From the NCBI GenBank assembly GCA_038874655.1, contig JAVZBY010000003.1, positions 22,718 through 86,717 of the forward strand: a stretch of 64,000 nt of DNA, read 5' to 3'. The stretch is from Candidatus Woesearchaeota archaeon. GTDB lineage: Archaea > Nanobdellota > Nanobdellia > Woesearchaeales > GW2011-AR15. The notes beneath the pieces are model-generated. The model ran no database searches. It saw only the letters and a list, made by a program, of their open reading frames with translations, and was not told the origin of the DNA. The position numbers and the translations under genes are program-made. This document shows, piece by piece, positions 26,476 to 57,112 of the stretch. How positions within the stretch are numbered: the first letter of the stretch is position 1; the number at the start of each line of letters is the position of its first letter.

Positions 26476-26481
26476 TTAAAA

Positions 26482-38652: not shown

Positions 38653-39072
38653 TTAAACCTTTTTAAAAACAACTGTTGTTATTCCATTATATTTTCCTAA
38701 GCTATAATTACCTACATTACAATAAAATATTACTGATTTTGTTTCATTAGATTTTAAAATAAAATCATTGTCTGAAACAGTTATCATAGGACTTATATTT
38801 CCATCAACTTTAATAGATACATAAACATCTTTATTATAATTATTTTGTAATGTTATTGCTCTTTTTCCTACATTTCCACTAGATATTTTATCAAAATACA
38901 ACCCATCAGTGTTTAAATTTATACCTACAATAGCTTTATCAACTACTTCAACACTTAAAGGCAATTTTTTAACTTCAACTAAAACATTAAAATTATAATA
39001 AAGTAAATACGCAGATATAGCTAACAAAAAGATTATTAAAAAAGACATAAAAAAAATATAAATTTTTTTCAT
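38653..39072 (-). CDS. Signal-anchored secreted protein (139 aa); last gene of the surface-protein operon
   Basis: N-terminus IYIFFMSFLIIFLLAISAYLLYY. Confidence 0.4.
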   Translation of the reverse strand: MKKIYIFFMSFLIIFLLAISAYLLYYNFNVLVEVKKLPLSVEVVDKAIVGINLNTDGLYFDKISSGNVGKRAITLQNNYNKDVYVSIKVDGNISPMITVSDNDFILKSNETKSVIFYCNVGNYSLGKYNGITTVVFKKV

Positions 39073-39167
39073 AAATATAGAAAAAATAAGCTAGTTTTTA
39101 ACCCTTTCTATTAAATTACAATAGATTAAAAATAAAAAAATAAATATCTCAAAGAAATTAAAAAGAA

Positions 39168-40607
39168 CTATTTATTTTTATTTAAATAATTAAACAATTT
39201 ATCAACTTTAGCAGGATTCCAACCTTTTTTTATCAATTTCTCTTTGATTTCTTCATTACTAAACAATTTCTGTAGATCTCTAATTTTATTTAATGTTTCT
39301 TCATCAAAAAGCAAATCATCAAAATTAGACGAATTAACAAATGATTTTGAAATATTTTCTTTCTCTATTGATTTTGATTTAAAAATTGTATAAACTAAAT
39401 ATAAGGATAATAAAACAAAAATTATCAATAGAAAAACTAAAACATTAACTAAAGTTATATTTGATATAATATTTGAAACAAATTTCTTCATACTAAATGT
39501 TCCTGGGATTTCTTCAACAACATTTTTATTTATATTCTCATCTATAATAATAAAATCTTCCAAACTTGAAGTACTTCCTTCATAATTTAAAGTGATAACT
39601 ATCTTATATTTACCTTTATCAAAATTTCTTGCATCCAAATAAGATTCTAATGTTTTTTTTTCTAATCTCCCTAAATTGGTATCAAAACTTCTAAAATTAG
39701 TTAATTTTGTTTTTTTATCTTCGGTATAAACATCAACAATAGCATATATATTATTAATTTCCTTATTCCATTCGCTCTCTACTTCAATATCAAATTTATT
39801 AATACTTCTATATTCAATTAATTTTGTAAAATTTAAGATTTTAACATTTTTTTGTCCTATTCTAAAATAATATGTTTGATTGCTTATATTACCATCATAA
39901 TTAAGATATGCTATAGCATAATATTCTCCTGATAATAAACCATTTGCATCAAAAGAAGTTGTCAATGATTTTTCTTCCTTAGATTTCAAATTATATATTT
40001 CATTTGTTCTTAATTGTCTTATTTGTTGATTATCAATATTATAAACATAAATATCTGCATATGCTTTTTCTATTGTTGGCACACCGATATTTTTAACATT
40101 TATATTAAAATCTTGTTTATCATTTAAATTCATAGGTGGCAAACTAATAGTCCATTCAACTGCCTTCCATGGATATAAAACATAAATTAAATATCTTAAT
40201 CCAACAACAGGCCTAGCAACTAAACCACCATAAGTATCTTTTGCAATATCTCTTAAAAAAACAATAATTTCATTTTCACCTGGAGAATCTAAATTATTCG
40301 GCAAATTAATTAAAACCTTAAATTTTCTTGTTTCTCCTGCAGGAACATCTTTAAAAGTATTAGGTTCTATAATAACATATTGTCTTAAATCAACTTTACT
40401 TTTAGATTCAACAAAAAACTCATAATCAGCCAAATAACCATCGTTTGCTATTAGTTCATAATCAAAAACATATTTTTTATTTGGTTCATAATCAAATCTC
40501 CTTAAAAAATCACCACTATTTGAAGAAATCCCTAACCCATAAATAAAAAAACTAGTTACAATAAGATTCAAAATAAGAAAAAATAAAAAATAAATTTTTT
40601 TTTTCAT
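39168..40607 (-). CDS. Surface protein (479 aa) with N-terminal signal, C-terminal TM anchor and short cytoplasmic tail
   Basis: N-terminus IYFLFFLILNLIVTSFFIYG; C-terminal NITLVNVLVFLLIIFVLLSLYLVYTIF then a charged tail. Confidence 0.45.
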   Translation of the reverse strand: MKKKIYFLFFLILNLIVTSFFIYGLGISSNSGDFLRRFDYEPNKKYVFDYELIANDGYLADYEFFVESKSKVDLRQYVIIEPNTFKDVPAGETRKFKVLINLPNNLDSPGENEIIVFLRDIAKDTYGGLVARPVVGLRYLIYVLYPWKAVEWTISLPPMNLNDKQDFNINVKNIGVPTIEKAYADIYVYNIDNQQIRQLRTNEIYNLKSKEEKSLTTSFDANGLLSGEYYAIAYLNYDGNISNQTYYFRIGQKNVKILNFTKLIEYRSINKFDIEVESEWNKEINNIYAIVDVYTEDKKTKLTNFRSFDTNLGRLEKKTLESYLDARNFDKGKYKIVITLNYEGSTSSLEDFIIIDENINKNVVEEIPGTFSMKKFVSNIISNITLVNVLVFLLIIFVLLSLYLVYTIFKSKSIEKENISKSFVNSSNFDDLLFDEETLNKIRDLQKLFSNEEIKEKLIKKGWNPAKVDKLFNYLNKNK

Positions 40608-40659
40608 TTTTACATTAAAAGAGTTTAATTAAAAAATATAAAAATTAAAATTATAAAAA

Positions 40660-41316
40660 TTAAACTTGTGTTGTATAAAATTCTATTGTACTATTTTCAT
40701 ATGTTCCTGCAGGTAAATCTACTGGAATTAGTACATTAACATCAACAGCAATACTATCTTCTGTATCAGGATAATATTTTAATCGTTGACATAATGTAAC
40801 ATTCTCTGATAATTCTACCCATGGCCAAGTATATAATCCTGTTGCACATGAATTTGCTTCATTCTCTCTTGCTACAACAGTCAAATTATAACCTAATGCA
40901 CCATTATAATTATTGAAAAAACTTTTTGCAGATGGTCCTCTTACTGAAACAGATACATTAACATTACCATTATTTTCTATTATAAAGCTTGTTGGTGTTG
41001 TATTTCCTGTCCAGCAATCAGTATTATCAATAAAAGTTAATCCTGCTGTTAGATTTGCAAATGTCTTTCCATTTAAATTAATTTCATCACAACTAGAATT
41101 TATAAAGCCTACTCCAAAATCTATTACAGAATTTAATAATGCTATACTAATAGAATTTTGCACACTTAAATTTATTCTACCCATTTCTGTTGCTTTTGCT
41201 GTCGGATATGTGCTAATCGCAATTTTATTTAATTGATTCATCAATAAAAAAGTAGATGAAACAGAAAAAAAAATTGATAGCATTATAACAAATGCTAAAA
41301 ACTTATTACTAACCAT
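40660..41316 (-). CDS. Signal-anchored N-glycosylation-rich protein, tandem paralog of 41337..41987 (candidate filament/pilin-like subunit)
   Basis: Shares with its neighbour INLSVQNSISI...DFG.GF.N.SC.EI...NLTAG..FID..DCWTGN.TPTS.I.ENNGNVNVSVS.RGP... and an identical C-terminal NVLIPVDLPAGTYENSTIEFY; pilin-type signal not demonstrable. Confidence 0.5.
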   Translation of the reverse strand: MVSNKFLAFVIMLSIFFSVSSTFLLMNQLNKIAISTYPTAKATEMGRINLSVQNSISIALLNSVIDFGVGFINSSCDEINLNGKTFANLTAGLTFIDNTDCWTGNTTPTSFIIENNGNVNVSVSVRGPSAKSFFNNYNGALGYNLTVVARENEANSCATGLYTWPWVELSENVTLCQRLKYYPDTEDSIAVDVNVLIPVDLPAGTYENSTIEFYTTQV

Positions 41317-41336
41317 GTTTTCACCTATTAGTTTTA

Positions 41337-41987
41337 TTAAACTTGCACAGCATAAAATTCAATAGTGCTATTTTCATAAGTTCCTGCTGGTAAATCAACT
41401 GGAATTAATACATTAACATCTATTGCAATACTATCTTGTGAGTCTGGATAATATTTTAAACGAGTGCAAAATGATGCATTATTATTTAATTGCACATAAC
41501 TTGATTGTAATGTGCCTGCACATGAATTTGCTTCATAATTCCTTGCCAATGCTGTTAAATTATATGTGAAAGAACCATTATACATACCAAAAAATGCTCT
41601 TGGATCTGGTCCTCTTATTGAAACAGATACATTAACATTACCATTATTCTCTACTATTATACTTGTTGGTGTTTTGTTGCCTGTCCAACAATCACTTGTA
41701 TCAATAAAAGCTGCGCCTGCTGTCAAATTTGCTGCTGTCTTGCTATTTGATAAAATCTCTGAACAACTAACATTAACAAAACCTGTGCCAAAATCAACTG
41801 TTGCATTATAAAGTATTATACTAATTGAATTCTGAACTGATAAATTTACTTTTCCAGGAACATTTTGTGCTTGGCCAGTAATCCCAAAAGGATTTAATTT
41901 ATTTAATGAATAAATTGTTACTCCCAAAGAAACAACAATTGACATAACCAAAAAAAGTGCTAATGTTCTATTTGAAATATCATCCAT
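41337..41987 (-). CDS. Signal-anchored N-glycosylation-rich protein, tandem paralog of 40660..41316
   Basis: See the paralog entry; roughly 55-60% aa identity by eye across the full length. Confidence 0.5.
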   Translation of the reverse strand: MDDISNRTLALFLVMSIVVSLGVTIYSLNKLNPFGITGQAQNVPGKVNLSVQNSISIILYNATVDFGTGFVNVSCSEILSNSKTAANLTAGAAFIDTSDCWTGNKTPTSIIVENNGNVNVSVSIRGPDPRAFFGMYNGSFTYNLTALARNYEANSCAGTLQSSYVQLNNNASFCTRLKYYPDSQDSIAIDVNVLIPVDLPAGTYENSTIEFYAVQV

Positions 41988-41998
41988 TTTTTTACCTC

Positions 41999-42250
41999 CT
42001 ATTCTTCCTTTAAAACTTGGAATATTATTTTACCTGTTGTTTTAATTCCACTTGGTGCATTTGGATCAATAACTTGTAAAGAAATTTTCGCATTCTGACT
42101 ACTTGTGCCTTGCTGTACTGGCGCATTATTCAATCTGTTAATCTCTGTCAATACAGTAAAAGTACCAAGAATTGATATAACAACTGCCAAAACAACTAAT
42201 ATCACAACTATGCTTTTTGGCAAATCTTCTTTTTCATCCATAAACCCCAC
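41999..42250 (-). CDS. Small signal-anchored protein (83 aa) resembling the N-terminal part of the two paralogs
   Basis: TM IVVILVVLAVVISILGTFTVL then AKISLQVIDPN, which resembles GKVNLSVQNSISI in the neighbouring proteins. Confidence 0.4.
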   Translation of the reverse strand: MGFMDEKEDLPKSIVVILVVLAVVISILGTFTVLTEINRLNNAPVQQGTSSQNAKISLQVIDPNAPSGIKTTGKIIFQVLKEE

Positions 42251-42403
42251 CCATTACAAAGTAATAACAAATAATTAAATTATATTTAACAAATTTTTTT
42301 TATTATTAACTAATATATAAACTTTACTCTTTTTAAATACTAAAAAAAAAAGTAAGATATAAAATACTAAATCTACTTAATTTCTCCTAAATCTAAAAAT
42401 TTA

Positions 42404-43570
42404 TTAGTTATTTCTCTTTTTAAGAATAAAAATAATCAAAATTATATTCAATAAAATTAAAATTATAACACCTATAATTAAAATATTTAATTGAAATTTA
42501 TTTCCTTGTCCAATAACTTTTGCACTCACATAATTTTTAAAATTCACCGAATCTGGTGATACATAAGCAGTATAAGTTTTTTCAGAAATTTTATCTTCAT
42601 AAATAACCTTTGTAGAGAGCTCATATTCACCTATAGTTAAACCTTCTGTATTCCAATACGCATTCATAATTGAAGTTGATTTTTCATTAATACTAACAGG
42701 AATTGCATTAAAAGTTGAAATTAATTTATTATCTTTAAAAACATCAACTTTTCCTTCTGCCTTAATTTGCTTGTTCCATTTATTTCTTAAATAGATATCT
42801 AGTTTTGCAATTTGACCTATTTTAAAATTATTTATTTCTATTTTTTCAATTTCAACTTCTAAATTTCCAACATCAAATTTTTGATAGAATTCTAAAATCT
42901 TAGAATCATATTCTAATGTTGCTTCTAAAACATAGCTTCCAGAATGTTCAGTTTGCCAGGTTAAAATAAAACTTTCTTCTTTATTCGACTCTATTGACTT
43001 TGATTCTGATGTTGCTTTATATAATTCTTCATTTGTTGGACCCTTAATTACTAAATTAATTTTTGCATTTTCTATTTTTTCCTTTCCAAAATTTTTTATT
43101 GCAAATGTAAAAATAATAGGCTCATTAACTTTTGTATTTGTTATAAATAAATTACCCTCTGCATATTTTCCAGGATAGGGTACATTAACTATTATTTTAT
43201 GCATTACTGCAGGAGCTGCCATTATAACATCATTTTGCATTTCTCTAGGTAATTCCAAAACAATTAAAGAACATGATCTTTCACCTGGAGGTAATTCATT
43301 TGGTAGTTGAATCTTATAATTAATCCATGTTTCTTTATTTTCAATAATCATCGTTTCTTTATCAAGTGAAATATATTTTGCTAATTCTCCTTCTTTCGAA
43401 ATTATTATTTTAGTAGGTGTATCATCAACAACTACTCTAAAAGCCCCTTCTTGTTGAAATTGATTAAAATCAAACTTATTTTTAGCAGGAGCTATTCCTA
43501 ATCCAAAGATCATATTTATATTTACTAAAAACATAATTAACATAATAAATTTTAAAAATATTTTTCTCAT
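42404..43570 (-). CDS. Surface protein (388 aa) with N-terminal signal and C-terminal TM anchor; translationally coupled to the giant gene
   Basis: Its start ATG overlaps the stop of the 2485-aa gene (ATGA at 43567-43570); C-terminal NILIIGVIILILLNIILIIFIL then KKRNN. Confidence 0.5.
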   Translation of the reverse strand: MRKIFLKFIMLIMFLVNINMIFGLGIAPAKNKFDFNQFQQEGAFRVVVDDTPTKIIISKEGELAKYISLDKETMIIENKETWINYKIQLPNELPPGERSCSLIVLELPREMQNDVIMAAPAVMHKIIVNVPYPGKYAEGNLFITNTKVNEPIIFTFAIKNFGKEKIENAKINLVIKGPTNEELYKATSESKSIESNKEESFILTWQTEHSGSYVLEATLEYDSKILEFYQKFDVGNLEVEIEKIEINNFKIGQIAKLDIYLRNKWNKQIKAEGKVDVFKDNKLISTFNAIPVSINEKSTSIMNAYWNTEGLTIGEYELSTKVIYEDKISEKTYTAYVSPDSVNFKNYVSAKVIGQGNKFQLNILIIGVIILILLNIILIIFILKKRNN

Positions 43571-46500
43571 GCCTGCTCACCCACTATATAAATTGTTACA
43601 TATTTTGGGCCGCCAGGCTCATACATCGGAACTGTTATATTAATATCAATTTGTGCAGTATCATGTTCATCACTATAATTTAAATTTCTTAATAATGTGG
43701 AATTTGAAATTGATATATCTGTCATATTTGCCCATTCTGTTTGTGAATTTGCATAATCAAAAGAAGGCATTTCACTAGTATTATCTGCTTTATATCTAAA
43801 ATAAATTGTATTTAAAGGCGCCATTATAAATGGTGATTGATTAGCACCAATTCTTGTAATATTAACAACAATATTACCATTATTCTCTATTATTAGAGGT
43901 GGATAACCATTATCAGTATCTTTTGATTCTAAAATATTCATTATTCCAAAATCAATTGAATTAACAGTTAAATTTATACTTAAAAAAGATTCAATTGTAA
44001 AGTTCCATGCTAGACTCCATAGACTATAATTAAAACCATCATATGCCCGAACACTCCAATTAATTAGTCTATCAACACAAAAATCATAATTTGGTTGATA
44101 ACTTGTATCAGAAACATTAATACTAACATCTGGACCACATTCGAAAGTAGAGGAAAAACTAATATTTATTGTATAATTTATATCATCATAATCTAAATCT
44201 GAGCTATTAAACAGAAATAAAGGTTTTCTTTCATGTATAGTATGATTATTGTTTGTTGGGGTTATTAATATTGGAATAGTTGGTGGACTATTAACAATTG
44301 TTGTTTTTGTTGAATTATAATTACTTGAATCAATACCATCGTATGCTTTTATAGTGCAGTTCCATATTTCATTCTTTTTTGTATTAGAACTGGCTATAAA
44401 TGATATTAAAGTATTTGTGTTATTATTCACACTAACATTTCCTGATGAAAATAAATTAGTTCCATTATACCAAAAATATTCAACTCTTAAAGAGGTGTTT
44501 AAATCATCAACGATAGTTGCATAACAATTTAAATTTGATGTGGTATTTGGCTCATTAGGTAAAATTTGTATGTTTGAAACTCTTGGAGGGGAATTTAAAT
44601 TAATTCTTACCTTTGTACTATTTTTAGTAATTCCATCTTGATAACCATCATTAGGTGTTACTGAGCAAATTAGTTCATCGTTTAAATTAAACGCATATCT
44701 TAATAATTCATTATTAGTTCTATTTAATATACCATAATTATATTCATTTAGAATTTCTTCATCAGATAAAATATAATTATATATTTTGATTTCATCTATA
44801 AACCCATTATAAGGTGCTTTTCCTGTATTATGTAAAGCCCAATTTGACAAACCACTAGATGCACCAATAACTAAATTTAAAATTGAGTTTGAAATATTAC
44901 TATTCACTTGAGAAGAATTTTTATTCATACCATTAACATATAATTTAAAAATATCTCTATTTAAAGTTAATAACAAATGTGTCCAATTATTTTGTTTTAT
45001 CGTCTCATTACTAATCACTTCATTTCCAAACTTTCTAATAATTAATGCTGAATCTGTTGTGTTTATTGAATATCTACCACCTAATATTAAATTTTCCCTG
45101 GAATCAAAGGTACCTACTTGAAAAACATCCTTATAATTAGATAAATCTAAAGTAAAATTATAAACCTGTGAACCTGTTTTATTCAATTTAAATACAAAAA
45201 TAACATTATTTGTTGAATTTAACCAATAAAAACCTAGGCCATAAATATCATTATTTGAATCAATTAAAATTTTCTGTATGCTATCATTAAATGGTGTTGG
45301 ATTTAAAATATAATTCCATAAGTTATTACCATTTTTATCAAACTTCATCACATTAATATAGCTATCTATTGGTTGATTTGCGATTCCTGCAATTATTAAA
45401 TTATCTTCACTATCTACCTTCATATCTTGAAGTGTATCATTATATATTGTTGGGTTTGTAGTAATATTGAAAAGATTCACTCCTGTAGGTGAAAATTTCA
45501 CTATTCTATACTGAAAATTACCTAAAAGTTGATCATATCCTCCTATATAATACGAACCATCTAATGCCTTAACAATAATATTAGCAGAATCAATTCCTGA
45601 ACTAATTTGAGGAGTATAATTCCACAAATTTACACCATTTTCATTAAAAGCTGAAACAAACCAATCATAAACAGTTGTTGCTTTAATCCCCACTGCAATT
45701 ATCAATGTATCATTATAAACTAAAACATCATTATAAAGATCTGTTCCTGATGTCGGATTAAATGTTCTATTCCATAAATAAGTTCCTGTAGAATTATATT
45801 TAACTAAATAATGACTATGCCCTACTACTGAATCATATATATATCCTGCTACATAAATGTTATTTCTTGAATCTACATCTACACCTAAATATCTATCATG
45901 ACCTAAATTTGGATAAGTATAATTAAAAAGTAAAGTTCCATTTGGTGAAAATTTCATAATTATTTGATCAATAGAATAAGGGTTATTATTACCTGCTCCA
46001 ACAGCTATAAAATTATCTTCATTATCAACTATTAAATCTGTTAAATATTCATAATATGTATCATCATTTAAATCATTTAAAAAGTAATTTTTTCTAAATT
46101 CATATAAAGTTTTGTTTTTATTATTTTCATTTAAAGAAACTCCTGGATAACCATTAAGTAAAAATATTGAATATATTCCATTACTCAGAATATTATCTAT
46201 TACATCAAACCTTGTAGGCTTTATCCATAATGAAATAGAGATATTATTACTTTTTAGTAAATTTGTATTATTAACATAAATAAAATTAGTGCCATTAAAA
46301 TTATATCCTCCAAATACCTTACCAAATTTTCTTGACCAATTTAAATTATTTGAAAAATTTATACTAGTATTATAGCCACTGTAATCTTTTGTAAAAGTAT
46401 TATTACTTCCTCCTTCAAACGGCAAATACAACAAATAAATACTTTGATTATTTTTATACCAAGTAGTTATATTTACAACTTGATCTCCATCTGCATCAAA

Positions 46501-49500
46501 AACATTATTAGCATTACAAGTCAAATTATTAAAAGTATAAGCAGGATCAGGCGTGATATAAGGATTATCATGTGTTGGTGCATCATTAAGTTTTATTTTC
46601 ACACTTGAGCTGTTTTTAGTTATGCCATCCTGATAACCATCATTGGGTGTTATAGAACATTTCCATTCATCTTCAAAATTAGTATTTGTAAAAGATATAA
46701 TATTACTTAATTTTCCTGAAATTCCTAAAAGATAATCATTATATATCTGCTGATCTGATAATACAAAATTATACACCTTAACCTCATCAATTGTACCATT
46801 AAAAAATTGTGTATTTGGTAAACCTATTCCCCCTCTTCTACCTATGTTGATAGATTTATTTACAGTATAAATAACATTACCATTTGCTTGCTTACTATTA
46901 TCCAAAACCCCATTTACATATAAAAGTAATTTCGAATTATCATATACTCCTACTATATAATACCATTTTCTTTTTCCTAATACTGTATTAGAGGTAATAT
47001 TTTGAGATGCAAAACCATTGTTATTCGATGCGAAAAACCTAACTCTACTTTCATTAGAAATTTGTAATCCATAGCCATCATCTCCCCCACCATCTTCATC
47101 AGTACTTATAATCATTTGATAAGTATTATTATCAAAAAGATATATCCATGCAGAAACACTAAAATTATTATAAGGCCTTAAATTAGGATTTGAAGGAAAA
47201 ACAATATATTGATAATTTCCATTAAACACATAAGCACCTCCTATTATACCTGCAGTTGTGTCAAATGTAGCATTAACCACAGATGCATTAGTAAAACTTA
47301 CATAATCTAATGTTGAACCATTTTTTGAATATGTTCCAGTTATTGAACCTCCTTCAAACGGCAAATACAACAAATAAATACTTTGATTATTTTTATACCA
47401 AGTAGTTATATTTACAACTTGATCTCCCTCTGCATCAAAAACATTATTAGCATTACAAGTCAAATCACTAAAAATATTTGCTGGATTAGGTGTGATATAA
47501 GGATCATCATGTGTTGGTGCAGAAGGATATATTTTAACAGAACTACTGTTTTTAGTTATCCCATCTACATAGCCATCATTTGGAGTTATAGAGCATTTAA
47601 TTTCATCATTTAATTTTAAATTTAAATATTTTAAATCTAAAAATTGTTCCTTATTTGAGAAAGAAAAAGGATAAATTATTGAATTAATATATGAAATAGA
47701 GAGAGGAATATTAAAAATTTTAACTTCATCAATAATACCATTAAAAAATTCTGTATTAGGTTGATAAGTACCACCTATTCTACCTATATTTATAGAATTA
47801 TTAACAGTATATACTACATTTCCATTTCCTATTTTTCTACCAACTAATAAACCATTAATATAAAGAGATATTTCAGAATTATTATAAACTCCAACAATAT
47901 TATACCATATATTTTTTCCTAAAGTAATATTTGAAGTTACATTTTGTAAAGCATAGCCATTAGAATTTAAAACTGCAAAGCTAACTCTTCCTTGATCAGT
48001 TATTCTTAAAAAATATCCATCATCATTACCTCCATCACTATCTGAAGAAATAATTGTTTGATTTGTATTATTTGAATTTAAACTTATCCAAACTGAGATA
48101 CTAAAATTATTATAAGGCCTTAAATCATTATTAGAAGGCACGGAGATATAATCATAATCCCCATCAAAAAAATATGCTCCTCCTATTATACCTGAAAACT
48201 GCAAATATGTTGCATTTACTACACTAACATTTTTTAAAGAAACATAATCTCTTGTAGAACCATTTGAAAAATTATCGCCACTAGTTGAACCTCCTTCAAA
48301 AGGTAAATTTAATGAATAAATACTTTTATTATTAATATACCATGTTGTTATGTTTCTAATAAAATGATCCTCATAATCTATTAGATTTGTAGTATCACAA
48401 AAGATTGTTTTATTTAAAGTTGGTGTTTGTGGGTTAATTTGTGGATTATCATGTATAGGTTCTGTATTATTAATAAAAAACCACAATCCTTCTTCGTAAA
48501 AATAAATTATATCTGGAAACTCTCCTATTTCAGAGGAATATATAATTCTATCACTATTATTAAACTCTATACAATGAACTATTAGATCTATAGCTTGAGA
48601 TGCTAAAATATGATAATATACTGAAATATTATGTTCTCTAACAACACAAGATTGTGGTAAAGTAATATTGTTATTAAGATTAGAAATAATTTTAACATTG
48701 GTAACATTATTTGGTTTATAATAAATTGAGGAGATATAATAATCATTTGCTTCACTACCAGTAAACCAATTACCATCAAAGAAAGCTTGTGCATTAACAC
48801 ATCCTCCTACTGCATTACAACCACTTATATTACTAAATTCAACATAATAATAATAACTAGGATCATAAGCATAATCACTTACATAAGCTAAATCATTTTC
48901 AAACTCAAAAAGCAAAGTAGCATAACCAGCTTTAATCATGTAATTTTTTAGATAAGCAGTTTGATTACATTCAAAATTTGGAATAAACAATTTTTTGATT
49001 TTAACAGAGTTTTCAGATAAATCAGAGTAATTATAAGTGATATTATTAACATCAACTATTAATAATTTATCTAGGAGAGGGTAATTACCACAACTTAGGT
49101 TTAAAAATAACATTTCATCAAAAGTTTGATTATTATCAACAGAGATTTCAGTCCAATTAGCATTAGTAGAGCTAATAGATAAATTAGCAATTCCGCTAGT
49201 ATTAAAAGCCACAATCCATATTTCATTATCTTTTAGATAGGTGTAAGGATTCAGTACAATTATAGAAATTTCAAAAGTTTGATTACTTAGATGAGGCACA
49301 ATCCATTCAATTTTATCAATTAAGCCATTATCATTAGTATCAAAATAATTAACATTTTCAAACAATATTTTCTGATCATCTTTAAACCAATAAACCTTTA
49401 TATTTTCTTTTTTAGATTCTTTAATATTAGTATAAGCTAGGACATTTTCATAATGCAAATCTGATGAAATAACAACATGTTTTTTATTTTCATTTAATAT

Positions 49501-51024
49501 AATTTCATCAGCTTTAGGTGGTTCAGTATAGAAAGATAATTCTAAGATCTCACTTTCATGATTACTTTCAGATAAATTTTCAGAATCATTTTTCTCAAAG
49601 ACTAAAACAACATCATTAACATTATCTAAATTCAAGTTTATGTTATTAAGATTTTGTAATTCAGAATTAAGTTCATTCAATTTATTTAACAATAAATTAG
49701 CTTTATCTTTGCTTACAGGTTTTTCTAATTCTTTTAACTCTGATTTAATTTTTTTAACTTTATTAAATTGTTCAACATCAATTAAGTTTTTATCTGCATA
49801 CACATATGGCTTAATATCATCATTACTAAAAGAGATGTTAAAAGCAGATTTAGGCAATATAGTATAATTAGTAATAGACAAATTAATTTTCTTTTTCCAT
49901 AAAACTGGCTCATTAATTTTAGCACTATAATTAAAATCAATAACACCAATTTCCTCAGAACTTAGATTCAAAGTTAAATTAATTATTTGCAATGTTTCAT
50001 TAACTAAAGTTTCATTCAAAGTTTCATTTAAGAAAGTTTCATTTAAACTCTCATTAACAAAAACATTTTCAATAAAAGTGTATTCAATTGAACTTAAATT
50101 TAAAACAGCATTCTCAACTATAATCTGTAAAACTATTTCATCGCCATAATTATACAATTTGCATGTTTCTAAACAATAATTACTGAATAAAAGCACTCTT
50201 TCTTCAATAGTTATATTTTCACTAGCATTACTCTCTGTGATTGTTTCATTAATAATTATTTCTGGAATAATTACATCTGTAAAATTGGTTTCATTAAACT
50301 CATATGCTATATTTGTATTGTTATCTATAATATTTTCTTCAATTATAGTTTCATTTAATATTGTTGTTTCATTTAAACTTTGATTTAAACTTATTTCAAT
50401 TATTTCCTCATTAATAACTTCATGACTATTATTTAAAGAAATATTTTCTAAATTAGAACTTTCTCCAACAGAAAAATTTTCATTAATTATATTATTTTCT
50501 TCAATGGTTTGAGTTTCTTCTGTAATTTCAATTAACTCTTGATTATTAACAGAGGGATTAACCTCATTATTAGTTAAATTATTTTCTTGATTATATTCTT
50601 GAACAATATCTTCAACAACTAAACCTGTTAAAATATTTTTTCTATTAAGTTCATTTGAATCAAAAACCAATTTTGAATTATTACTTTTATCAATCAATAA
50701 AACCTTTACAGAACCATTTCCTATTATAGAACCAGTTATTTTTAGAGATGTTAAATTTCCATTAACATTAAATCTTAGAACATTATTATCATAAAACTCT
50801 TGATTAACATTAATAACTTCTTTTATTTCTGTATTGCCAAAAATTAAAAACCCTGTTAAATTTTGACCAAATAAATTATAAAATAAACCTATTGAAAATA
50901 TTGTTATTATAAATAATAACACATACGACTCATGCTTCATTAACCTCTTTATTTTTCTATCTCTTTGCTCTCTCCTCTCTGCCTCTCTAATTGCCTTTAT
51001 AAACTCTTGTAAGGGTGATGTCAT
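43567..51024 (-). CDS. Giant (2485 aa) signal-anchored surface protein with an Asn-rich N-glycan linker, three LamG/concanavalin-like modules and SBBP-type beta-propeller repeats
   Basis: N-terminal cytoplasmic basic stretch then TM YVLLFIITIFSIGLFYNLF. Repeated NETL/NETF sequons. Three copies of a roughly 310-aa module contain GGAY(F/V)F(D/N)G...SVW(I/Y)...DEVK(I/V)(F/Y)N (LamG-like). Several NIYVAGY...LVKYN..G..LWN repeats (SBBP-like). SD GGGGTGAT lies 5 nt before the ATG. Confidence 0.8.
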   Translation of the reverse strand: MTSPLQEFIKAIREAERREQRDRKIKRLMKHESYVLLFIITIFSIGLFYNLFGQNLTGFLIFGNTEIKEVINVNQEFYDNNVLRFNVNGNLTSLKITGSIIGNGSVKVLLIDKSNNSKLVFDSNELNRKNILTGLVVEDIVQEYNQENNLTNNEVNPSVNNQELIEITEETQTIEENNIINENFSVGESSNLENISLNNSHEVINEEIIEISLNQSLNETTILNETIIEENIIDNNTNIAYEFNETNFTDVIIPEIIINETITESNASENITIEERVLLFSNYCLETCKLYNYGDEIVLQIIVENAVLNLSSIEYTFIENVFVNESLNETFLNETLNETLVNETLQIINLTLNLSSEEIGVIDFNYSAKINEPVLWKKKINLSITNYTILPKSAFNISFSNDDIKPYVYADKNLIDVEQFNKVKKIKSELKELEKPVSKDKANLLLNKLNELNSELQNLNNINLNLDNVNDVVLVFEKNDSENLSESNHESEILELSFYTEPPKADEIILNENKKHVVISSDLHYENVLAYTNIKESKKENIKVYWFKDDQKILFENVNYFDTNDNGLIDKIEWIVPHLSNQTFEISIIVLNPYTYLKDNEIWIVAFNTSGIANLSISSTNANWTEISVDNNQTFDEMLFLNLSCGNYPLLDKLLIVDVNNITYNYSDLSENSVKIKKLFIPNFECNQTAYLKNYMIKAGYATLLFEFENDLAYVSDYAYDPSYYYYVEFSNISGCNAVGGCVNAQAFFDGNWFTGSEANDYYISSIYYKPNNVTNVKIISNLNNNITLPQSCVVREHNISVYYHILASQAIDLIVHCIEFNNSDRIIYSSEIGEFPDIIYFYEEGLWFFINNTEPIHDNPQINPQTPTLNKTIFCDTTNLIDYEDHFIRNITTWYINNKSIYSLNLPFEGGSTSGDNFSNGSTRDYVSLKNVSVVNATYLQFSGIIGGAYFFDGDYDYISVPSNNDLRPYNNFSISVWISLNSNNTNQTIISSDSDGGNDDGYFLRITDQGRVSFAVLNSNGYALQNVTSNITLGKNIWYNIVGVYNNSEISLYINGLLVGRKIGNGNVVYTVNNSINIGRIGGTYQPNTEFFNGIIDEVKIFNIPLSISYINSIIYPFSFSNKEQFLDLKYLNLKLNDEIKCSITPNDGYVDGITKNSSSVKIYPSAPTHDDPYITPNPANIFSDLTCNANNVFDAEGDQVVNITTWYKNNQSIYLLYLPFEGGSITGTYSKNGSTLDYVSFTNASVVNATFDTTAGIIGGAYVFNGNYQYIVFPSNPNLRPYNNFSVSAWIYLFDNNTYQMIISTDEDGGGDDGYGLQISNESRVRFFASNNNGFASQNITSNTVLGKRKWYYIVGVYDNSKLLLYVNGVLDNSKQANGNVIYTVNKSINIGRRGGIGLPNTQFFNGTIDEVKVYNFVLSDQQIYNDYLLGISGKLSNIISFTNTNFEDEWKCSITPNDGYQDGITKNSSSVKIKLNDAPTHDNPYITPDPAYTFNNLTCNANNVFDADGDQVVNITTWYKNNQSIYLLYLPFEGGSNNTFTKDYSGYNTSINFSNNLNWSRKFGKVFGGYNFNGTNFIYVNNTNLLKSNNISISLWIKPTRFDVIDNILSNGIYSIFLLNGYPGVSLNENNKNKTLYEFRKNYFLNDLNDDTYYEYLTDLIVDNEDNFIAVGAGNNNPYSIDQIIMKFSPNGTLLFNYTYPNLGHDRYLGVDVDSRNNIYVAGYIYDSVVGHSHYLVKYNSTGTYLWNRTFNPTSGTDLYNDVLVYNDTLIIAVGIKATTVYDWFVSAFNENGVNLWNYTPQISSGIDSANIIVKALDGSYYIGGYDQLLGNFQYRIVKFSPTGVNLFNITTNPTIYNDTLQDMKVDSEDNLIIAGIANQPIDSYINVMKFDKNGNNLWNYILNPTPFNDSIQKILIDSNNDIYGLGFYWLNSTNNVIFVFKLNKTGSQVYNFTLDLSNYKDVFQVGTFDSRENLILGGRYSINTTDSALIIRKFGNEVISNETIKQNNWTHLLLTLNRDIFKLYVNGMNKNSSQVNSNISNSILNLVIGASSGLSNWALHNTGKAPYNGFIDEIKIYNYILSDEEILNEYNYGILNRTNNELLRYAFNLNDELICSVTPNDGYQDGITKNSTKVRINLNSPPRVSNIQILPNEPNTTSNLNCYATIVDDLNTSLRVEYFWYNGTNLFSSGNVSVNNNTNTLISFIASSNTKKNEIWNCTIKAYDGIDSSNYNSTKTTIVNSPPTIPILITPTNNNHTIHERKPLFLFNSSDLDYDDINYTINISFSSTFECGPDVSINVSDTSYQPNYDFCVDRLINWSVRAYDGFNYSLWSLAWNFTIESFLSINLTVNSIDFGIMNILESKDTDNGYPPLIIENNGNIVVNITRIGANQSPFIMAPLNTIYFRYKADNTSEMPSFDYANSQTEWANMTDISISNSTLLRNLNYSDEHDTAQIDINITVPMYEPGGPKYVTIYIVGEQA
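46409..46526. repeat. Intragenic direct repeat, copy 1 (118 nt, 117/118 identical to 47348..47465); part of a roughly 940-bp tandem module repeat
   Basis: Seen directly: cctccttcaaacggcaaatacaacaaataaatactttgattatttttataccaagtagttatatttacaacttgatctccatctgcatcaaaaacattattagcattacaagtcaaat. Confidence 0.85.
47348..47465. repeat. Intragenic direct repeat, copy 2 (see 46409..46526); a third, diverged copy lies near 48290
   Basis: Same sequence with a single a/c difference; flanking roughly 150 nt remain about 80% similar. Confidence 0.85.
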
Positions 51025-51236
51025 TTTTTATCACCCCTCTTCTTCTTTAATGCCCTATTATATATTGTCCAAATAGTTCTATCATCTCTATTCAAAGAAT
51101 CTGCAATATCATGATAACTCATATTAAGAGTTTCTTTCATGTAAAAAACAACAGATTCCATAAAAGAAAAATCTCTATTATTAAATATAGACAGAGGTAT
51201 ATTTATTTCATTATTATTCTTTTTACCCACCCTCAC
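51021..51236 (-). CDS. Small HTH DNA-binding protein (sigma-70 region-4/LuxR-like helix-turn-helix), first gene of the surface-protein operon; uses a GTG or an internal start
   Basis: ETLNMSYHDIADSLNRDDRTIWTIYNRALKKK shows an HTH pattern like sigma region 4. The stop overlaps the giant gene start (ATGA) and its 3' end encodes the giant gene's SD. The annotated start is GTG with no upstream SD, so the transcript may be leaderless. Confidence 0.45.
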   Translation of the reverse strand: MRVGKKNNNEINIPLSIFNNRDFSFMESVVFYMKETLNMSYHDIADSLNRDDRTIWTIYNRALKKKRGDKK

Positions 51237-51243
51237 AAGAAAT

Positions 51244-51350
51244 AACTTACATTGTAAGTATTTATACTTTTTGGTTTTTTACTTACATTGTAAGTATTAT
51301 AAAAAAATAAATTAAAATAAAAAATAAAATATTTACTTACAATGTAAGTA
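51244..51350. promoter_or_regulatory. Three copies of a 17-bp palindrome TACTTACA(A/T)TGTAAGTA (51244-51260, 51280-51296, 51334-51350) in the divergent region between the HTH gene and tRNA-Asn
   Basis: Seen directly; half-sites TACTTACA/TGTAAGTA are exact reverse complements; centre-to-centre spacings are 36 and 54 bp; copy 1 ends 7 nt from the GTG start of the HTH ORF. Confidence 0.55.
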
Positions 51351-51427
51351 TAAATCAATTTAAAAAATCAAACAAAAAACTCAGTAAATTATTTAAATTA
51401 ATATCTAATCCATTAATAAATATTAAT

Positions 51428-51500
51428 GCCTCGATAGCTTAGTAGGTAGAGCGATGGACTGTTAATCCATAGGTCGCCAGTTCGAGTCTGGCTCGAGGCG
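51428..51500 (+). tRNA. tRNA-Asn (anticodon GUU), 73 nt, no encoded CCA
   Basis: Acceptor stem GCCTCGA/TCGAGGC plus discriminator G. D-arm AGCTTAGTAGGTAGAGC. Anticodon stem-loop ATGGA-CTGTTAA-TCCAT, giving GTT. T-arm GCCAG-TTCGAGT-CTGGC. Followed by an oligo-T tract. Confidence 0.85.
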
Positions 51501-51540
51501 CTTTTTAAAAAATTTTTTAGAAAAAACATAAAATTTCTTT

Positions 51541-53757
51541 TTAAATATTTCCAACTAAGTTTGTATTTTGAAGAACTGTTGCTGCAATTAAATTAAAAAC
51601 CAAAATCACAAAAAAAGCAATTAAACAATAAAGTAAACCACTTTTTTTAAAATAAACACCTAACAAATATTTTTCATTCAAAGGGTCATAACCATTTTCA
51701 ATAGTATTTAACATAGTTGTTAATAAATATGTTACTTGAATTATATAAATTCCAATAACAACTTGAAAATAAAAACTAGGGATTGAGTCTCTAAACAAAT
51801 CTAACATTGAACCAAATTGTTGTGCATTTGCAGCACCACCTGCTTCTCTAGTTAAAATATCCATTTGAGCAGATAATTTATTTAATATTGTTGTTATCAT
51901 GGATGTCAAACCTATGACAACACCCGCAATTAAAGGCGCTAAAAAACTTATTTGACTTTTCATACTACTAGTAATTTCTGACATTAAATCCTTTAATCTT
52001 TCTTCAACTTTATGCATTTCTTTAACATAATTAGAAATATTTATCAACGCCTCAGATGCAATCAAAGGTCCTTTTTTTGCACTTTCCACAAAAACTTTCA
52101 TAGAACTCTGAATCAATGCAGATGGAAACTTATTAATTGCACCATATTTTTTATCAAAAATAGCATCTTCAACACCCATTCCCAAATTAGAAATATTATT
52201 ATAAACTAATTCAAAAAATTTTCCTGCATTAGTATTTTGAGTGATTTGGCTTACTTTATAGAAAGCAATCTCAGCAGGCAACCCATCTCCTACTCTATTT
52301 CCTAATTGAAACAAAGCTGCAGCAAACTCATTTTCTAACTCTCTTGTTTTATTCCTAATTTCAATTAATTTTCTAGTATAAGTTAAATAATAGAAACTCA
52401 ACCCTAGTGTTAATCCTAAAGGCAATAAAATACTCAAAAGTGTTGAAAAAATTCCATAAGGTCCAATTATCTTACCTTGACTATTTTCTTTATAACCTAA
52501 AAAAGTAAAAGAATATTCTTTTACTTTGTCCATTGAAGTTATTATCTCAAAATCATAATCATTTGTTAAACCAATATCCCAATAACTACCTGAAAGATTA
52601 TTAATCCCATAAATAACTAAAGGTAAGAAAGCTATAAAAACAAAAAAACCAGTTATCCCTAATGAAATCCATAAAGGATTTACTCTATATTCTTTATTAA
52701 AAAACTTAATATTCAAATATGCATATTTCTTTAACTCTTCATTAACCTCAGTAATATCTGCTTGTCCATAACCACTTGGTCTTGTAGACAAAATAATCTT
52801 GCCGAAATACCATACAAGCAAAGGCAAAAAGAGATTATATAAAATAGCAATATGATACCATTCAACACCTCCTAAAAAACCAACAACTAAAGGCAAAATA
52901 ACTAAACCTAATATTGGCAAAATAACACCTAACATATGTAAAGTTGTTATAGGGCTTTTTAATTCCTGTGCAAAGTGAAGCATTTTTTCATAAGTTGATT
53001 CTAACATAACTGACATTGCTTTTTCTAAAGATTCAAGTCTCTTTTTTTCACTTGGCTCATATAAAGAAGCTTCAATCAAATGCATACTTTCAACAAACTC
53101 CATATTATATTTTTTCCATCTTTCTAAATAATTATCTAAGGAATCTTTCAATGAATGAAACTTTCCTGTTTCTAAATTCCAAATAATTTTTTTAAAATCA
53201 ATACTTAAAGGAGGTTGTAAATGATCAGAAGTAAATTTTATTGCTAATTCTAGATTTGAAGTATGTCTCATAAAAGAAACAATATAAAAAATAGACATAA
53301 CCATCTGATTGCTTGCTTTTAATCGCCAAGAATTAGCCATAATAAATGGTAAATTCATTAAGGGAATAATTGAAATAAAACCAAAAAAAAGCCAAACCAT
53401 AATAAAAAAGACTATGCCTTCGCCATTAAAAAGCAAGCCATTAATTAAAAAAGTTAATAATATTGAAATTAAAACAAAACTTAAAGGAACTAAAACAGCA
53501 AAAGAATTAACTCCTTCTGGAGTAGTTTTTAAATGACATGTTTCTAAGGCTTCTTCAATCTCCTTTCTTTTTTTCTCATCTACTTTAAAAGATATTATCT
53601 TTGCACAGAAATTACAAGATTTTTCATAAAAAGAATAATGACTAGGCAAAATCTCGTTTTCAAAATCTTGAAAATCATCTGTCTTAACCCCTAAATTTTG
53701 ATTTTTATATCTTTTTGTAAATTCTTCTATCTCTTTTTTAATTTGCTCTTCGTCCAA
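51541..53757 (-). CDS. Large polytopic membrane protein (738 aa) with two cytoplasmic domains each followed by TM helices; possibly a T2SS-F/FlaJ/TadC-like filament-assembly platform
   Basis: About 9-11 hydrophobic segments. The repeated architecture (soluble roughly 150-aa domain plus a TM bundle, twice) and segments like ALFQLGNRVGDGLPAEIAFYKV resemble T2SSF-domain proteins. This is inferred from architecture, not a confirmed motif match. Confidence 0.4.
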   Translation of the reverse strand: MDEEQIKKEIEEFTKRYKNQNLGVKTDDFQDFENEILPSHYSFYEKSCNFCAKIISFKVDEKKRKEIEEALETCHLKTTPEGVNSFAVLVPLSFVLISILLTFLINGLLFNGEGIVFFIMVWLFFGFISIIPLMNLPFIMANSWRLKASNQMVMSIFYIVSFMRHTSNLELAIKFTSDHLQPPLSIDFKKIIWNLETGKFHSLKDSLDNYLERWKKYNMEFVESMHLIEASLYEPSEKKRLESLEKAMSVMLESTYEKMLHFAQELKSPITTLHMLGVILPILGLVILPLVVGFLGGVEWYHIAILYNLFLPLLVWYFGKIILSTRPSGYGQADITEVNEELKKYAYLNIKFFNKEYRVNPLWISLGITGFFVFIAFLPLVIYGINNLSGSYWDIGLTNDYDFEIITSMDKVKEYSFTFLGYKENSQGKIIGPYGIFSTLLSILLPLGLTLGLSFYYLTYTRKLIEIRNKTRELENEFAAALFQLGNRVGDGLPAEIAFYKVSQITQNTNAGKFFELVYNNISNLGMGVEDAIFDKKYGAINKFPSALIQSSMKVFVESAKKGPLIASEALINISNYVKEMHKVEERLKDLMSEITSSMKSQISFLAPLIAGVVIGLTSMITTILNKLSAQMDILTREAGGAANAQQFGSMLDLFRDSIPSFYFQVVIGIYIIQVTYLLTTMLNTIENGYDPLNEKYLLGVYFKKSGLLYCLIAFFVILVFNLIAATVLQNTNLVGNI

Positions 53758-56900: not shown

Positions 56901-57112
56901 GTAATGAAGAATGTAAAAATAATATATGTATAAAAAAAGATAATCCACCTAAAGAAGAAAATCCACAACCTCCAAACCCTCCTGAAAATCCACCTAATCC
57001 ACCAACAAATAAATGCAAAGAAGGAGAAATTGAATGTGGTACAGAATGCTGTAATTCATATAAACCTATATGTGAACAAAAAAACAATAAATATCAATGT
57101 AAAAACAAATAA
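53987..57112 (+). CDS. Signal-anchored Cys-rich surface protein (1041 aa) with three tandem Myxococcus-type cysteine-rich repeats and a Pro-rich C-terminal segment
   Basis: SD AGGAG 8 nt before ATG. TM IFLIIGIMIITLVLSIILL. Repeats ECGDGIINQNWEQCD..., YCGDGIINQKFEQCD..., YCGDNIIQRPNDDGFIEECDG... (CGDG...EECD is the pattern of the Myxococcus Cys-rich repeat). NPPKEENPQPPNPPENPPNPPTN near the end. Confidence 0.65.
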   Translation: MKKNQVSIFLIIGIMIITLVLSIILLNKDNKVGSTYSSVLFTTKIQEYSNFRDLCIEKSVNNALTYNLIKEENKKDIENYIKYYLYYCLLDSPLKNTDYNIQIETPLSKDYIIEVNIYEDSIHVKGELPIKVSYQDNNKEFKKFEYILKKEKIEKIKESQKFNLISTDKYFILQIPENTKIYSKDNFQIDLLSAKFDDKEKISQNPYLEGTKVYYITDSKFSNKVKACINYIEDMLNEDSDEKNLALAWYDEERKVWVARESEINTKNKIICADFDHFSPVALVKNTYTEEKNKEKTLKWDFFIEHIHRPCSSSPDNIPKGKIIEQRPEIDKRYTGLFNKNIGTKEYEEFYETRWKFNDFKEKDERDAPHRYGVYATPQMYQTLLIRGHDNLNTEYIHISGIRALKSELYNEQNIWKFEDLNENQEINIQETKNDRITGSDMSLIKYKYSNINDWIIIPSFEPNEHAELSIEDWDDDDLYSITDNYCDDKPCLKCIDITNDKNAIEVSCDLYKEDCLKKCKSKAKEIYLEFEKKGWAPWNPSNDGILDYKYISKEQLIPNLVECKIEHGTVIGTIIDCNIDETDIATPMFWGYGNKKTGLRSSQGNYKDSPDFGYEGAGNNDHPVTYDFEIISPICDETEAKLKIKCSEKDLCIINLNNHEFRCENKECIMDVKNLLIGSEKGKNKITGYVINKRESQDVCAYVSAELILTECPSKEKIECGDGIINQNWEQCDINPEGIGKECDNGQCIMSGDLKCTCPSIGVYCGDGIINQKFEQCDLKPDGSGVNCQKGICIMTSKQRCICKEEKNYCGDNIIQRPNDDGFIEECDGTDDKSCPGQCKSDCTCPNSINTLCKVCHWDQGQPGCFREYTSNCPNSWNGHNSHQYDILVCDPNNPPIYSNGKKVDPSECKPESLCNPKCYGTGLCNKNNICDYKESCDNCPQDCGKCPSPTPQPNECKKNEIKCGNYCCSSNEECKNNICIKKDNPPKEENPQPPNPPENPPNPPTNKCKEGEIECGTECCNSYKPICEQKNNKYQCKNK

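Follow-up and report, generated by a model that had tools for sequence, protein, structure and literature searches.

A candidate strand-donation surface fimbria with a giant lectin-type protein in a woesearchaeal genome

Strand-donation pili have been described in Thermoproteota, haloarchaea, Thermococcales/Archaeoglobales and Sulfolobales, and literature searches returned none for DPANN archaea. Cryo-TEM has revealed pili-like appendages on ultrasmall episymbionts in contact with their hosts. Here, we analyzed DNA from Candidatus Woesearchaeota archaeon (GCA_038874655.1, contig JAVZBY010000003.1), namely a 64-kb stretch at forward-strand positions 22,718-86,717, hereafter the window. A first-pass annotation of this DNA had read one of its loci as encoding a filament or adhesive surface structure. 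Our analysis likewise favours an adhesive surface structure, but disfavours assembly by a type IV pilus route. With moderate confidence, we propose that the genes at 38653-51236 encode a Sec-dependent surface fimbria of the strand-donation class, free of chaperone and usher and equipped with a giant lectin-type tip adhesin. The cluster provides a concrete, testable candidate for attachment in DPANN.

Gene order, control region and neighbours

ORF calling recovered eight minus-strand genes at 38653-51236, exactly as annotated. The array and its surroundings are listed below, beginning with the two neighbours and followed by the array in transcription order.

51541..53757, minus strand: polytopic membrane protein of 738 aa with a PilC/GspF (T2SSF)-type cytoplasmic domain; neighbour
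51428..51501, plus strand: tRNA-Asn(GTT); neighbour
51245-51259, 51281-51295 and 51335-51349, no strand assigned: three 15-bp palindromes, ACTTACA(A/T)TGTAAGT, read in the sequence
51021..51236, minus strand: HTH protein of 71 aa, first gene of transcription unit 1
43567..51024, minus strand: giant protein of 2,485 aa, candidate tip adhesin, with anchor, spacer, repeats, Ig/Fn3-like modules and proposed docking domain
42404..43570, minus strand: p388, 388 aa, with signal peptide, stacked Ig-like/CARDB domains and C-terminal TM segment (aa 356-387)
42251..42403, minus strand: AT-rich spacer of 153 nt between units 1 and 2, with an oligo-T run and then BRE/TATA-like AAAGTTTATATATT
41999..42250, minus strand: p83, 83 aa, with the ATG at 42241 as its likely true start
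41337..41987, minus strand: fimbrial-subunit candidate of 216 aa
40660..41316, minus strand: 218-aa paralog of the 216-aa protein
39168..40607, minus strand: p479, 479 aa, with signal peptide, three Ig-like domains, TM segment (aa 376-411) and cytoplasmic tail of ~65 aa
38653..39072, minus strand: p139, 139 aa, with N-terminal TM segment and a single Ig-like domain

From the 71-aa to the 139-aa gene, the intergenic distances are -4, -4, 153, 11, 20, 52 and 95 nt, and both overlaps (71-aa/2485-aa and 2485-aa/388-aa) were read directly as ATGA stop/start junctions. Comparison with related genomes showed that the gene order is kept in about a dozen diverged genomes. Judged by the archaeal promoter consensus, the 153-nt spacer probably marks the boundary between unit 1 (HTH-giant-p388) and unit 2 (p83-subunits-p479-p139), and the latter probably carries a promoter of its own. 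This boundary is consistent with the occurrence of unit 2 alone in four of the relatives' loci (L004, L005, L010 and L012).

The HTH assignment of the 71-aa product was supported by a match to Sigma70_r4_2 (E 1.5e-5; 25.0 bits, just below the cut-off of 25.7), and homologs adjoin giant/p388 genes in L016 (two copies) and L019. The triple palindrome annotated upstream, ACTTACAWTGTAAGT, was found at 51245, 51281 and 51335 (3 matches against 0.01 expected; 0/100 shuffles gave 3), the proximal copy falling between TATA-like GTATAAATA and the start of the HTH gene. The palindrome was absent from the loci of all 21 relatives. The three copies may be operators bound by an HTH dimer, conceivably that of the 71-aa product, and together with this product would control unit 1.

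The tRNA-Asn, which is also present in L004, and the 738-aa gene both belong to the conserved backbone and therefore lie outside the system. The locus had been described as anchored at the tRNA; it does adjoin it, but on the 5' side and with no integrase. The 738-aa polytopic protein was confirmed by ORF and TM prediction, and its proposed likeness to T2SSF held at the level of fold (a GspF/PilC-type cytoplasmic helical bundle), but the T2SSF profile (PF00482) reached 12.8 bits against a threshold of 25.2, with weak matches in 11 of 28 relatives (best E 0.014). Its suggested two-fold architecture appears in the secondary-structure map as two helical-domain-plus-TM units, although the halves were not detectably homologous in a profile comparison based on a low-diversity alignment. 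Homologs are near-universal in Woese-/Nanoarchaeota, and such a gene adjoins the cluster in one backbone lineage only (window, L004 and L010). As a backbone gene with adjacency limited to one lineage, it was rejected as the cluster's own platform, which mends a tempting mis-association.

Components of the array

All seven products downstream of the HTH gene contain an N-terminal hydrophobic segment, as annotated. C-terminal TM anchors, said to be frequent, were found in p388 and p479 but not in the other five. The many NxS/T sequons ascribed to these proteins proved to be enriched only in the giant (126 against 52.9 expected, z 11) and in the 216-aa (z 4) and 218-aa (z 2) proteins; p479, p139 and p83 match expectation and p388 has none.

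The 216- and 218-aa proteins are a tandem paralog pair (61% identical, E 2e-93). In the former, a signal anchor (aa 4-29) is followed by T-G-Q-A (aa 37-40), an amphipathic strand (aa 46-52) and a Cys-containing beta-sandwich (aa 57-216). Structural comparison of the predicted fold points to a beta-sandwich/jelly-roll like that of known ABP/thread/Tafi/cannulae-class members, and the N-terminal strand (aa 45-56) is left unpacked in the single-chain model. The family alignment and profile checks covered 59 members. A conserved [TS]-G-x-A precedes the amphipathic strand, placing a candidate site ~11 residues past the helix, and the n-region is acidic. None of the 59 matched TasA/Peptidase_M73 (PF12389) or DUF1102 at E<=1, the subunits had no match in NCBIfam, Pfam or PDB sequences, and no twin-arginine (RR) motif was seen in subunit N-termini. 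The family comprises >2,000 clusters at 50% identity and has no curated model, which it could now yield.

The suspected kinship of p83 was confirmed in that it is a partial paralog, aligning to subunit residues 1-55 (hhalign 96.7%, E 3.3e-10). It consists of a subunit-like TM helix and a linker, then the donor-like strand AKISLQV followed by another, short strand, without a globular domain. The T-G-x-A motif of the subunits is missing, and in about half of the p83 family G-S-P stands in its place. In 15 loci, the p83 gene lies directly upstream of the first subunit gene. We propose that p83 is a membrane-tethered donor strand serving as anchor/terminator or as placeholder; if true, this would be a new minimal way to terminate or anchor such fibres.

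At the N-terminus of the giant, a TM/signal anchor (aa 33-53) precedes a spacer rich in Asn and sequons. Three repeats follow, each of a 73-aa Ig-like module plus LamG (LamG at aa 954-1109, 1268-1427 and 1575-1601+2003-2091 by self-BLAST), the third LamG being split by about six propeller-like blades (aa 1646-1960). After Ig/Fn3-like modules, the protein ends in a subunit-like domain. Two regions are of particular relevance:

44695..48372, minus strand: putative LamG/propeller binding region, aa ~885-2110, from the repeat map
43570..44007, minus strand: C-terminal domain, aa ~2340-2485, a homolog of the 216/218-aa subunit beta-sandwich

The LamG annotation was clearly supported (Laminin_G_3, E 3.9e-73, four stretches). 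The SBBP annotation was not: no match was obtained, and only a sub-threshold delta-60 repeat (1e-6) accompanies the blades. The C-terminal domain aligns with subunit positions 47-203 (hhalign 95.7%, E 9.6e-9; BLASTP E 2e-5), and the same module closes proteins with Gly-rich or S8-protease-plus-LamG cargos in L002, L016 and L019. Cargos on this module vary among relatives between LamG arrays, a Gly-rich domain and an S8 protease with LamG. We propose that the module is a pilin-like, filament-docking domain, which would flag host-binding or host-degrading cargos in DPANN metagenomes.

p388 matches CARDB (2.5e-8) and is a paralog of p479 (E 7e-20); a p388-like gene follows every docking-domain giant (window, L002/3, L009, L016, L017 and L021). 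The p479 gene is downstream of the subunit genes in 8 loci, the place of AbpB/TapA in ABP/TasA operons. Among 15 members of the p479/p388 family, WxLIP_HBD was matched in 7 (best 4e-8), CARDB in 4 and, faintly, PGBD in 2. The Ig-like domain of p139, whose gene is downstream of p479 in 7 loci, is a homolog of domain 1 of p479/p388 (hhalign 93.9%, E 1.5e-7) and matches a choice-of-anchor D domain below cut-off (E 6e-4).

Proposed assembly and alternative readings

In the proposed fimbria, the N-terminal signal anchor would insert the 216/218-aa subunits in the membrane, where a generic signal peptidase I may cleave them after [TS]-G-x-A. The released amphipathic strand (G-K-V-N-L-S-V) would be inserted into an adjacent subunit to complete its beta-sandwich. 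The product would be a thin N-glycosylated polymer, to which the giant LamG/propeller protein would be joined through its C-terminal domain. p83 may fill the groove in the subunit nearest the cell while tethering the fibre; alternatively, it may keep grooves open prior to assembly. Each Ig-stack protein would pair with a client (the giant for p388, the subunits for p479 and the single-domain p139) as an anchor or as an assembly factor analogous to AbpB/TapA/TafF. The gene set is compact, and heterologous expression is conceivable.

The strict pairing of giant with p388 and of subunits with p479 would also be expected of anchored, non-filamentous adhesin complexes, in which the Ig-stack partner holds the giant and the 216/218-aa proteins on the cell, perhaps by strand complementation, as in Gram-positive Csc/WxL complexes. 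The WxLIP_HBD and weak PGBD matches and the shared order of signal peptide, Ig stack and C-terminal TM segment point the same way, and polymerization of the 216/218-aa proteins is itself something we infer. We consider this reading rather unlikely. An archaeal type IV pilus-like filament, with the 216/218/83-aa proteins as class III-signal pilins on the 738-aa PilC/FlaJ-like platform and with ATPase and prepilin peptidase encoded elsewhere, appears improbable. It would draw on the genuine T2SSF-type domain next to the cluster in the window, L004 and L010, on the pilin-like order of conserved short N-terminus, hydrophobic helix and beta-sandwich, and on faint arch_flag_Nterm matches in 6/59 family members (E>=0.09). 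Archaeal type IV pilins have a class III signal, a [KRDE][GA] cleavage site directly before the hydrophobic helix (FlaFind-type motif). In the subunits, however, this signal is absent, position 8 (after K/R) being T in 40, S in 6, F in 5 and A in 4 of 59, and profile scans of the 64-kb window agreed with the earlier annotation in finding no T2SSE or peptidase A24 linked to the candidate pilins.

Archaeal surface proteins commonly have Ig-like folds and N-terminal anchors, and the window encodes several more large surface proteins. The genes could encode glycoproteins of the envelope or S-layer that are unrelated to one another, brought together by chance or by shared regulation and forming no joint structure. 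We regard this as very improbable, given the order of overlapping or closely spaced genes conserved in the diverged genomes and the part-to-part homologies (giant C-terminus/subunit, p83/subunit N-terminus and p139/p479 domain 1).

Building on the proposed fimbria, we tentatively suggest that the cluster represents a DPANN-wide, previously undescribed class of Sec-dependent strand-complementation fimbriae, with an uncurated subunit family, giant cargos that can be exchanged (LamG lectin arrays, Gly-rich domains or subtilisin-like proteases) and are docked through a conserved C-terminal pilin-like domain, and a helix-plus-donor-strand terminator or tether. Among the pili-like appendages visible in cryo-TEM, at least some may be such fimbriae.

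Comparison with described systems

Compared with T2SSF/PilC/FlaJ platforms, the 738-aa neighbour has a beta-rich insertion and no adjacent ATPase. The cannulae or Hyper2 (DUF1102) tubes of Pyrodictium differ from the cluster, which has no DUF1102 match, another gene context and no sign of tubes. Chaperone-usher type 1/P pili (FimH, FimG, PapA, PapH) differ in that the archaeal system has no outer membrane, no usher and no detected PapD-type chaperone, and would be terminated by a bare strand tethered to the membrane; PapD_N/C and Usher gave no matches, and only faint ASH/Cep192/choice-of-anchor-D and TcfC E-set matches were seen in p139/p388.

WxL-interacting proteins (DUF916/DUF3324; Csc/Duf, Firmicutes) resemble p388/p479 in signal peptide, Ig-like domains and C-terminal TM segment, and in both cases the genes adjoin those of secreted surface-protein partners. 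These archaea, however, have neither a WxL-domain partner nor peptidoglycan, and PGBD is faint (2/15). In the Tafi system of haloarchaea (TafA/C/E/F/D/G/B) and the taf-like Sec clusters of Thermococcales/Archaeoglobales, the pilin-like domain of TafC is N-terminal, whereas that of the giant is C-terminal. The TafC model matches the giant (E 5e-21) through LamG only (aa 948-1111), at 75.2 bits against a cut-off of 410, and the giant was ruled out as a TafC equivalog. The cluster also lacks TafD signal peptidase, TafG/DUF5305, a twin-arginine motif and a DUF1102 match; Peptidase_S24/S26 and DUF5305 had no match in any scanned ORF of the window or the neighbours of L015/L016. Archaeal bundling pili (AbpA/AbpB, Pyrobaculum) and TasA/TapA fibres show no sequence or profile similarity to the cluster and belong to Thermoproteota and Firmicutes rather than DPANN. 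In contrast to these systems, the downstream Ig-stack protein of the cluster has a C-terminal TM segment and a paralog dedicated to the giant adhesin, and the cluster also encodes a modular tip protein of giant size and, in p83, a strand-only membrane protein.

Two protein lineages in the surface-protein cluster

The eight minus-strand ORFs between 38653 and 51236 lie exactly where the first-pass annotation had placed them, with spacings of -4, -4, 153, 11, 20, 52 and 95 nt, and its two ATGA stop/start overlaps were seen in the sequence itself. The features concerned are:

51541-53757, minus strand, 738-aa polytopic PilC/GspF-like protein
51428-51501, tRNA-Asn
51021-51236, minus strand, 71-aa HTH protein (HTH71)
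43567-51024, minus strand, 2,485-aa LamG protein (the giant)
41999-42250, minus strand, 83-aa protein (p83)
41337-41987, minus strand, 216-aa subunit
40660-41316, minus strand, 218-aa subunit
within 38653-51236, minus strand, Ig-type proteins of 388, 479 and 139 aa (p388, p479, p139)

The cluster is assembled from two protein lineages. To the subunit lineage belong the tandem paralogs, which are indeed a pair (61% identical), and the C-terminal ~145 residues of the giant, hereafter the (putative) docking module, which are homologous to the subunit beta-domain (hhalign 95.7%, E 9.6e-9). The proposed kinship of p83 holds for the first 55 subunit residues only (96.7%, E 3.3e-10) and not for the remainder; the match spans the membrane helix, the linker and a strand, AKISLQV in p83 and GKVNLSV in the subunit. 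A word-index search returned just 27 subunit relatives and six for the docking domain, and an exhaustive profile/HMM search revealed a large family: E<=1e-3 was reached by 2,218 cluster representatives and E<=1e-10 by 1,500, nearly all of 200-250 aa. None of 59 sampled members gave a meaningful match to any Pfam or NCBIfam family, and no solved structure was matched by sequence when the subunit profile was searched against PDB sequences.

Column statistics for these 59 sequences showed a near-invariant cytoplasmic N-terminus, (D/E)(D/E)ISN(K/R)xLA, followed by a conserved [TS]-G-x-A (G in 58 and A in 40 sequences), a predicted motif that conforms to the -3/-1 rule for signal peptidase I. An amphipathic strand, hydrophobic at positions 47, 49 and 51 and polar at 46, 48, 50 and 52, is left unpacked in the monomer model, and may thus carry the signature expected of an N-terminal donor strand. 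The N-terminal motif (alignment positions 1-10; 41958-41987 in the window) is acidic and shows stronger conservation than the globular domain. It is unusual for a Sec signal and is not a class III site, which suggests some recognition factor.

The Ig-stack lineage comprises p388 and p479, which are full-length paralogs (E 7e-20) with a signal peptide, Ig-like/CARDB domains and a C-terminal TM segment, and p139, which corresponds to their first domain alone (93.9%, E 1.5e-7), preceded by a separate N-terminal anchor. Pfam/NCBIfam searches confirmed CARDB in p388, and WxLIP_HBD was matched by 7 of 15 p388/p479 family members. C-terminal TM anchors, previously thought to be frequent among the products, are restricted to p388 and p479. 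As a small pilin paralog p139 was rejected: its hhalign match to the subunit family was weak (0.1% with the single sequence), and a second alignment gave 60% over 32 columns; the protein duplicates domain 1 of p479.

In the giant, LamG was recovered in four stretches (E 3.9e-73, Pfam/NCBIfam), while the SBBP assignment was not reproduced. Self-BLAST located about six propeller-like blades inside the third LamG, so that a propeller appears to be inserted there; the blades (aa 1646-1960; delta-60 repeat match sub-threshold) are flanked by an N-part at aa ~1575-1601 and a C-part at aa ~2003-2091. The NxS/T sequons, described as abundant throughout, exceed expectation in three products only, the giant (126 vs 53, z 11) and the 216-aa (z 4) and 218-aa (z 2) proteins; p388 has none.

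Of the control elements, the triple palindrome ACTTACAWTGTAAGT was retrieved (three matches vs 0.01 expected) and had no match in the loci of 21 relatives. The regulator call for HTH71 was borne out by a marginally sub-threshold Pfam/NCBIfam match to Sigma70_r4_2 (E 1.5e-5). The AT-rich 153-nt gap 5' of p83 holds an oligo-T run and, after it, a BRE/TATA-like element, and because of these the cluster is suggested to form two putative transcription units split at this gap, in agreement with the modular presence and absence of its parts among relatives. Scans for bacterial sigma-70 promoters and intrinsic terminators, models not applicable to archaea, did not exceed shuffles.

Gene order in relatives and the genomic setting

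Loci of relatives (L001-L021) were gathered by exact-protein look-ups and a genome scan and compared with the window proteins by phmmer, and a conserved gene order was found. In 15 loci p83 immediately precedes the first subunit gene, the subunit genes occur in tandem sets of one to four, and p479-like and p139-like genes follow 3' of the subunits in L002-L005, L010, L012, L016 and L021. A p388-like gene lies 3' of every giant with a subunit-like end (window, L002/3, L009, L016, L017 and L021), L016 and L019 have HTH71 homologs next to the giant module, and some loci (L001 and L013) hold p83 and subunit(s) only. The docking module caps LamG arrays in the window, L009 and L021, a Gly-rich domain in L002, and an S8 subtilase with LamG in L016 and L019. 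By eye, the Gly-rich protein appears to bear a normal, cleavable Sec signal. The subtilisin-like carriers lie within 1-5175 of L016 and 201-4001 of L019, and this protease cargo hints at degradation of the host envelope. In L016, a transglutaminase-like 677-aa gene (10608-12641) is directly 3' of the p139-like gene.

The loci belong to MAGs of Woesearchaeota, Pacearchaeota and Nanoarchaeota whose GC ranges from 25 to 45%. This DPANN cluster is also carried by third-party bins titled 'uncultured Methanosarcinales archaeon' (L012, L015, L016, L018, L019 and L020; GC 0.33-0.40), a label that is probably wrong; L012 has the Woesearchaeal RpiB-Rpe-MBL backbone too (E 1e-57 to 1e-83).

On sequence comparison, the 738-aa gene is placed outside the cluster, as a member of a conserved backbone of the order ADK-152aa-[738]-tRNA-...-RpiB-Rpe-MBL. 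Its family has >3,193 members of 48-78% identity and is near-universal in Woese- and Nanoarchaeota. The cluster lies inside this backbone in the window, L004 and L010 and is absent from it in L008; in the JW930 MAG, the homolog (L007) is on other contigs than the two p83-subunit pairs (L001 and L013), and no homolog lies within 10 kb in L014-L018 and L021. The proposed two-fold internal repeat was not detectable when profiles of the two halves were compared; the secondary-structure map shows two units, each a helical domain plus TM segments. Between TM helices the protein has an insertion rich in beta structure (aa ~348-420), and its gene is an orphan in the window, L004, L007 and L008, where neither an ATPase nor a pilin or peptidase gene adjoins it.

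A tRNA-integrated island was considered and rejected, the cluster being on the 5' side of tRNA-Asn, with no integrase and a GC content equal to its surroundings, and tRNA-Asn being likewise present in L004. We read the site as a variable slot of the conserved backbone and not as a proven mobile element. The tRNA-Asn of L004 is 89 nt long (7453-7541), against 74 nt in the window, and the 89-nt gene in the matching slot of L008 (10969-11057), called 'tRNA-Stop (tta)' by ARAGORN, is probably a mis-called intron-containing tRNA.

The window is archaeal, to judge by its archaeal CCA-adding enzyme and HerA, and has ~25% GC. It also contains:

53987-57112, plus strand, 1041-aa Cys-rich protein (64 Cys)
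3109-6780, plus strand, 1223-aa Cys-rich protein (60 Cys)
58448-62302, plus strand, 1284-aa Cys-rich protein (68 Cys)
29642-33469, plus strand, second giant adhesin candidate (1,275 aa)
7106-7438, plus strand, MazF/PemK-like toxin
7950-8348, plus strand, Fic/DOC-family protein
24000-28000, GC trough (0.18-0.19 vs ~0.25 elsewhere)

The three very large Cys-rich proteins had no meaningful Pfam match, with faint sub-threshold matches for the 1284-aa one; this and the 1041-aa protein have an N-terminal hydrophobic segment. The 1041- and 1223-aa proteins lack sequons altogether (9.5 and 12 expected, z -3.3 and -4.0), a glycosylation signature opposite to that of the LamG giant. The second adhesin candidate is unrelated, with Big_9, He_PIG, PKD and cadherin-like matches, 65 sequons vs 28 (z 8.2) and TM segments at both termini. 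The toxin and Fic genes lie either side of gatC, a short distance upstream of a cyclophilin-gatA-patatin-gatB block. The GC trough covers the gene of the CCA-adding enzyme and two ORFs that matched nothing in Pfam (25711-26475 and 26482-28179).

Interpretation and alternatives

We observed homologies between the parts, a fold class, a conserved gene order, modular cargos and a restricted sequon enrichment, and on balance we lean towards a fimbria that depends on Sec, assembles by strand donation and carries a giant lectin-type adhesin at its tip. The subunits would be cleaved at T-G-x-A and donate the N-terminal strand to a neighbour, in a fibre with a presumed polarity; p83 would act as a tethered donor strand (anchor, terminator or placeholder), p388, p479 and p139 may be client-specific anchor or assembly factors, and the palindromes could mediate autoregulation. 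In the main rival there is no polymer, and a paralogous Ig-stack anchor simply holds each secreted beta-domain protein in a complex; this would account for the p388-like gene beside each giant with a subunit-like end, and we regard it as rather unlikely.

A type IV pilus, to which the adjacent platform-like 738-aa gene, the conserved subunit N-terminus and faint arch_flag_Nterm matches in 6 of the 59 family members point, we hold to be improbable and reject as the best explanation. As noted at first pass, neither a secretion ATPase nor a prepilin peptidase was found in the whole 64 kb; a signal peptidase was likewise not found there, and none of the three was found next to the distant loci.

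Comparison with known systems

Strand-donation pili have been reported in Thermoproteota, haloarchaea, Thermococcales/Archaeoglobales and Sulfolobales, and pili-like appendages have been seen by cryo-TEM on ultrasmall episymbionts. Our literature search found no description of strand-donation pili in DPANN, nor of this subunit family. As far as sequence can tell, the cluster belongs to no named family, because Tafi, TasA and DUF1102 fail every sequence test: the NCBIfam TafC match is LamG-only and far below cut-off, TafD and TafG are absent, and no TasA or DUF1102 profile matched among the 59 subunit-family members. In layout the giant is like FimH, the pilin domain lying C-terminal to the binding part. 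Organisationally the cluster is closest to two systems. One is ABP/TasA, where a three-domain beta protein comes after the pilin, there is an HTH regulator, and a dedicated peptidase, chaperone or usher is lacking. The other, Tafi, has a small regulator, a base protein anchored in the membrane and a tip subunit in which LamG is joined to a pilin-like domain.
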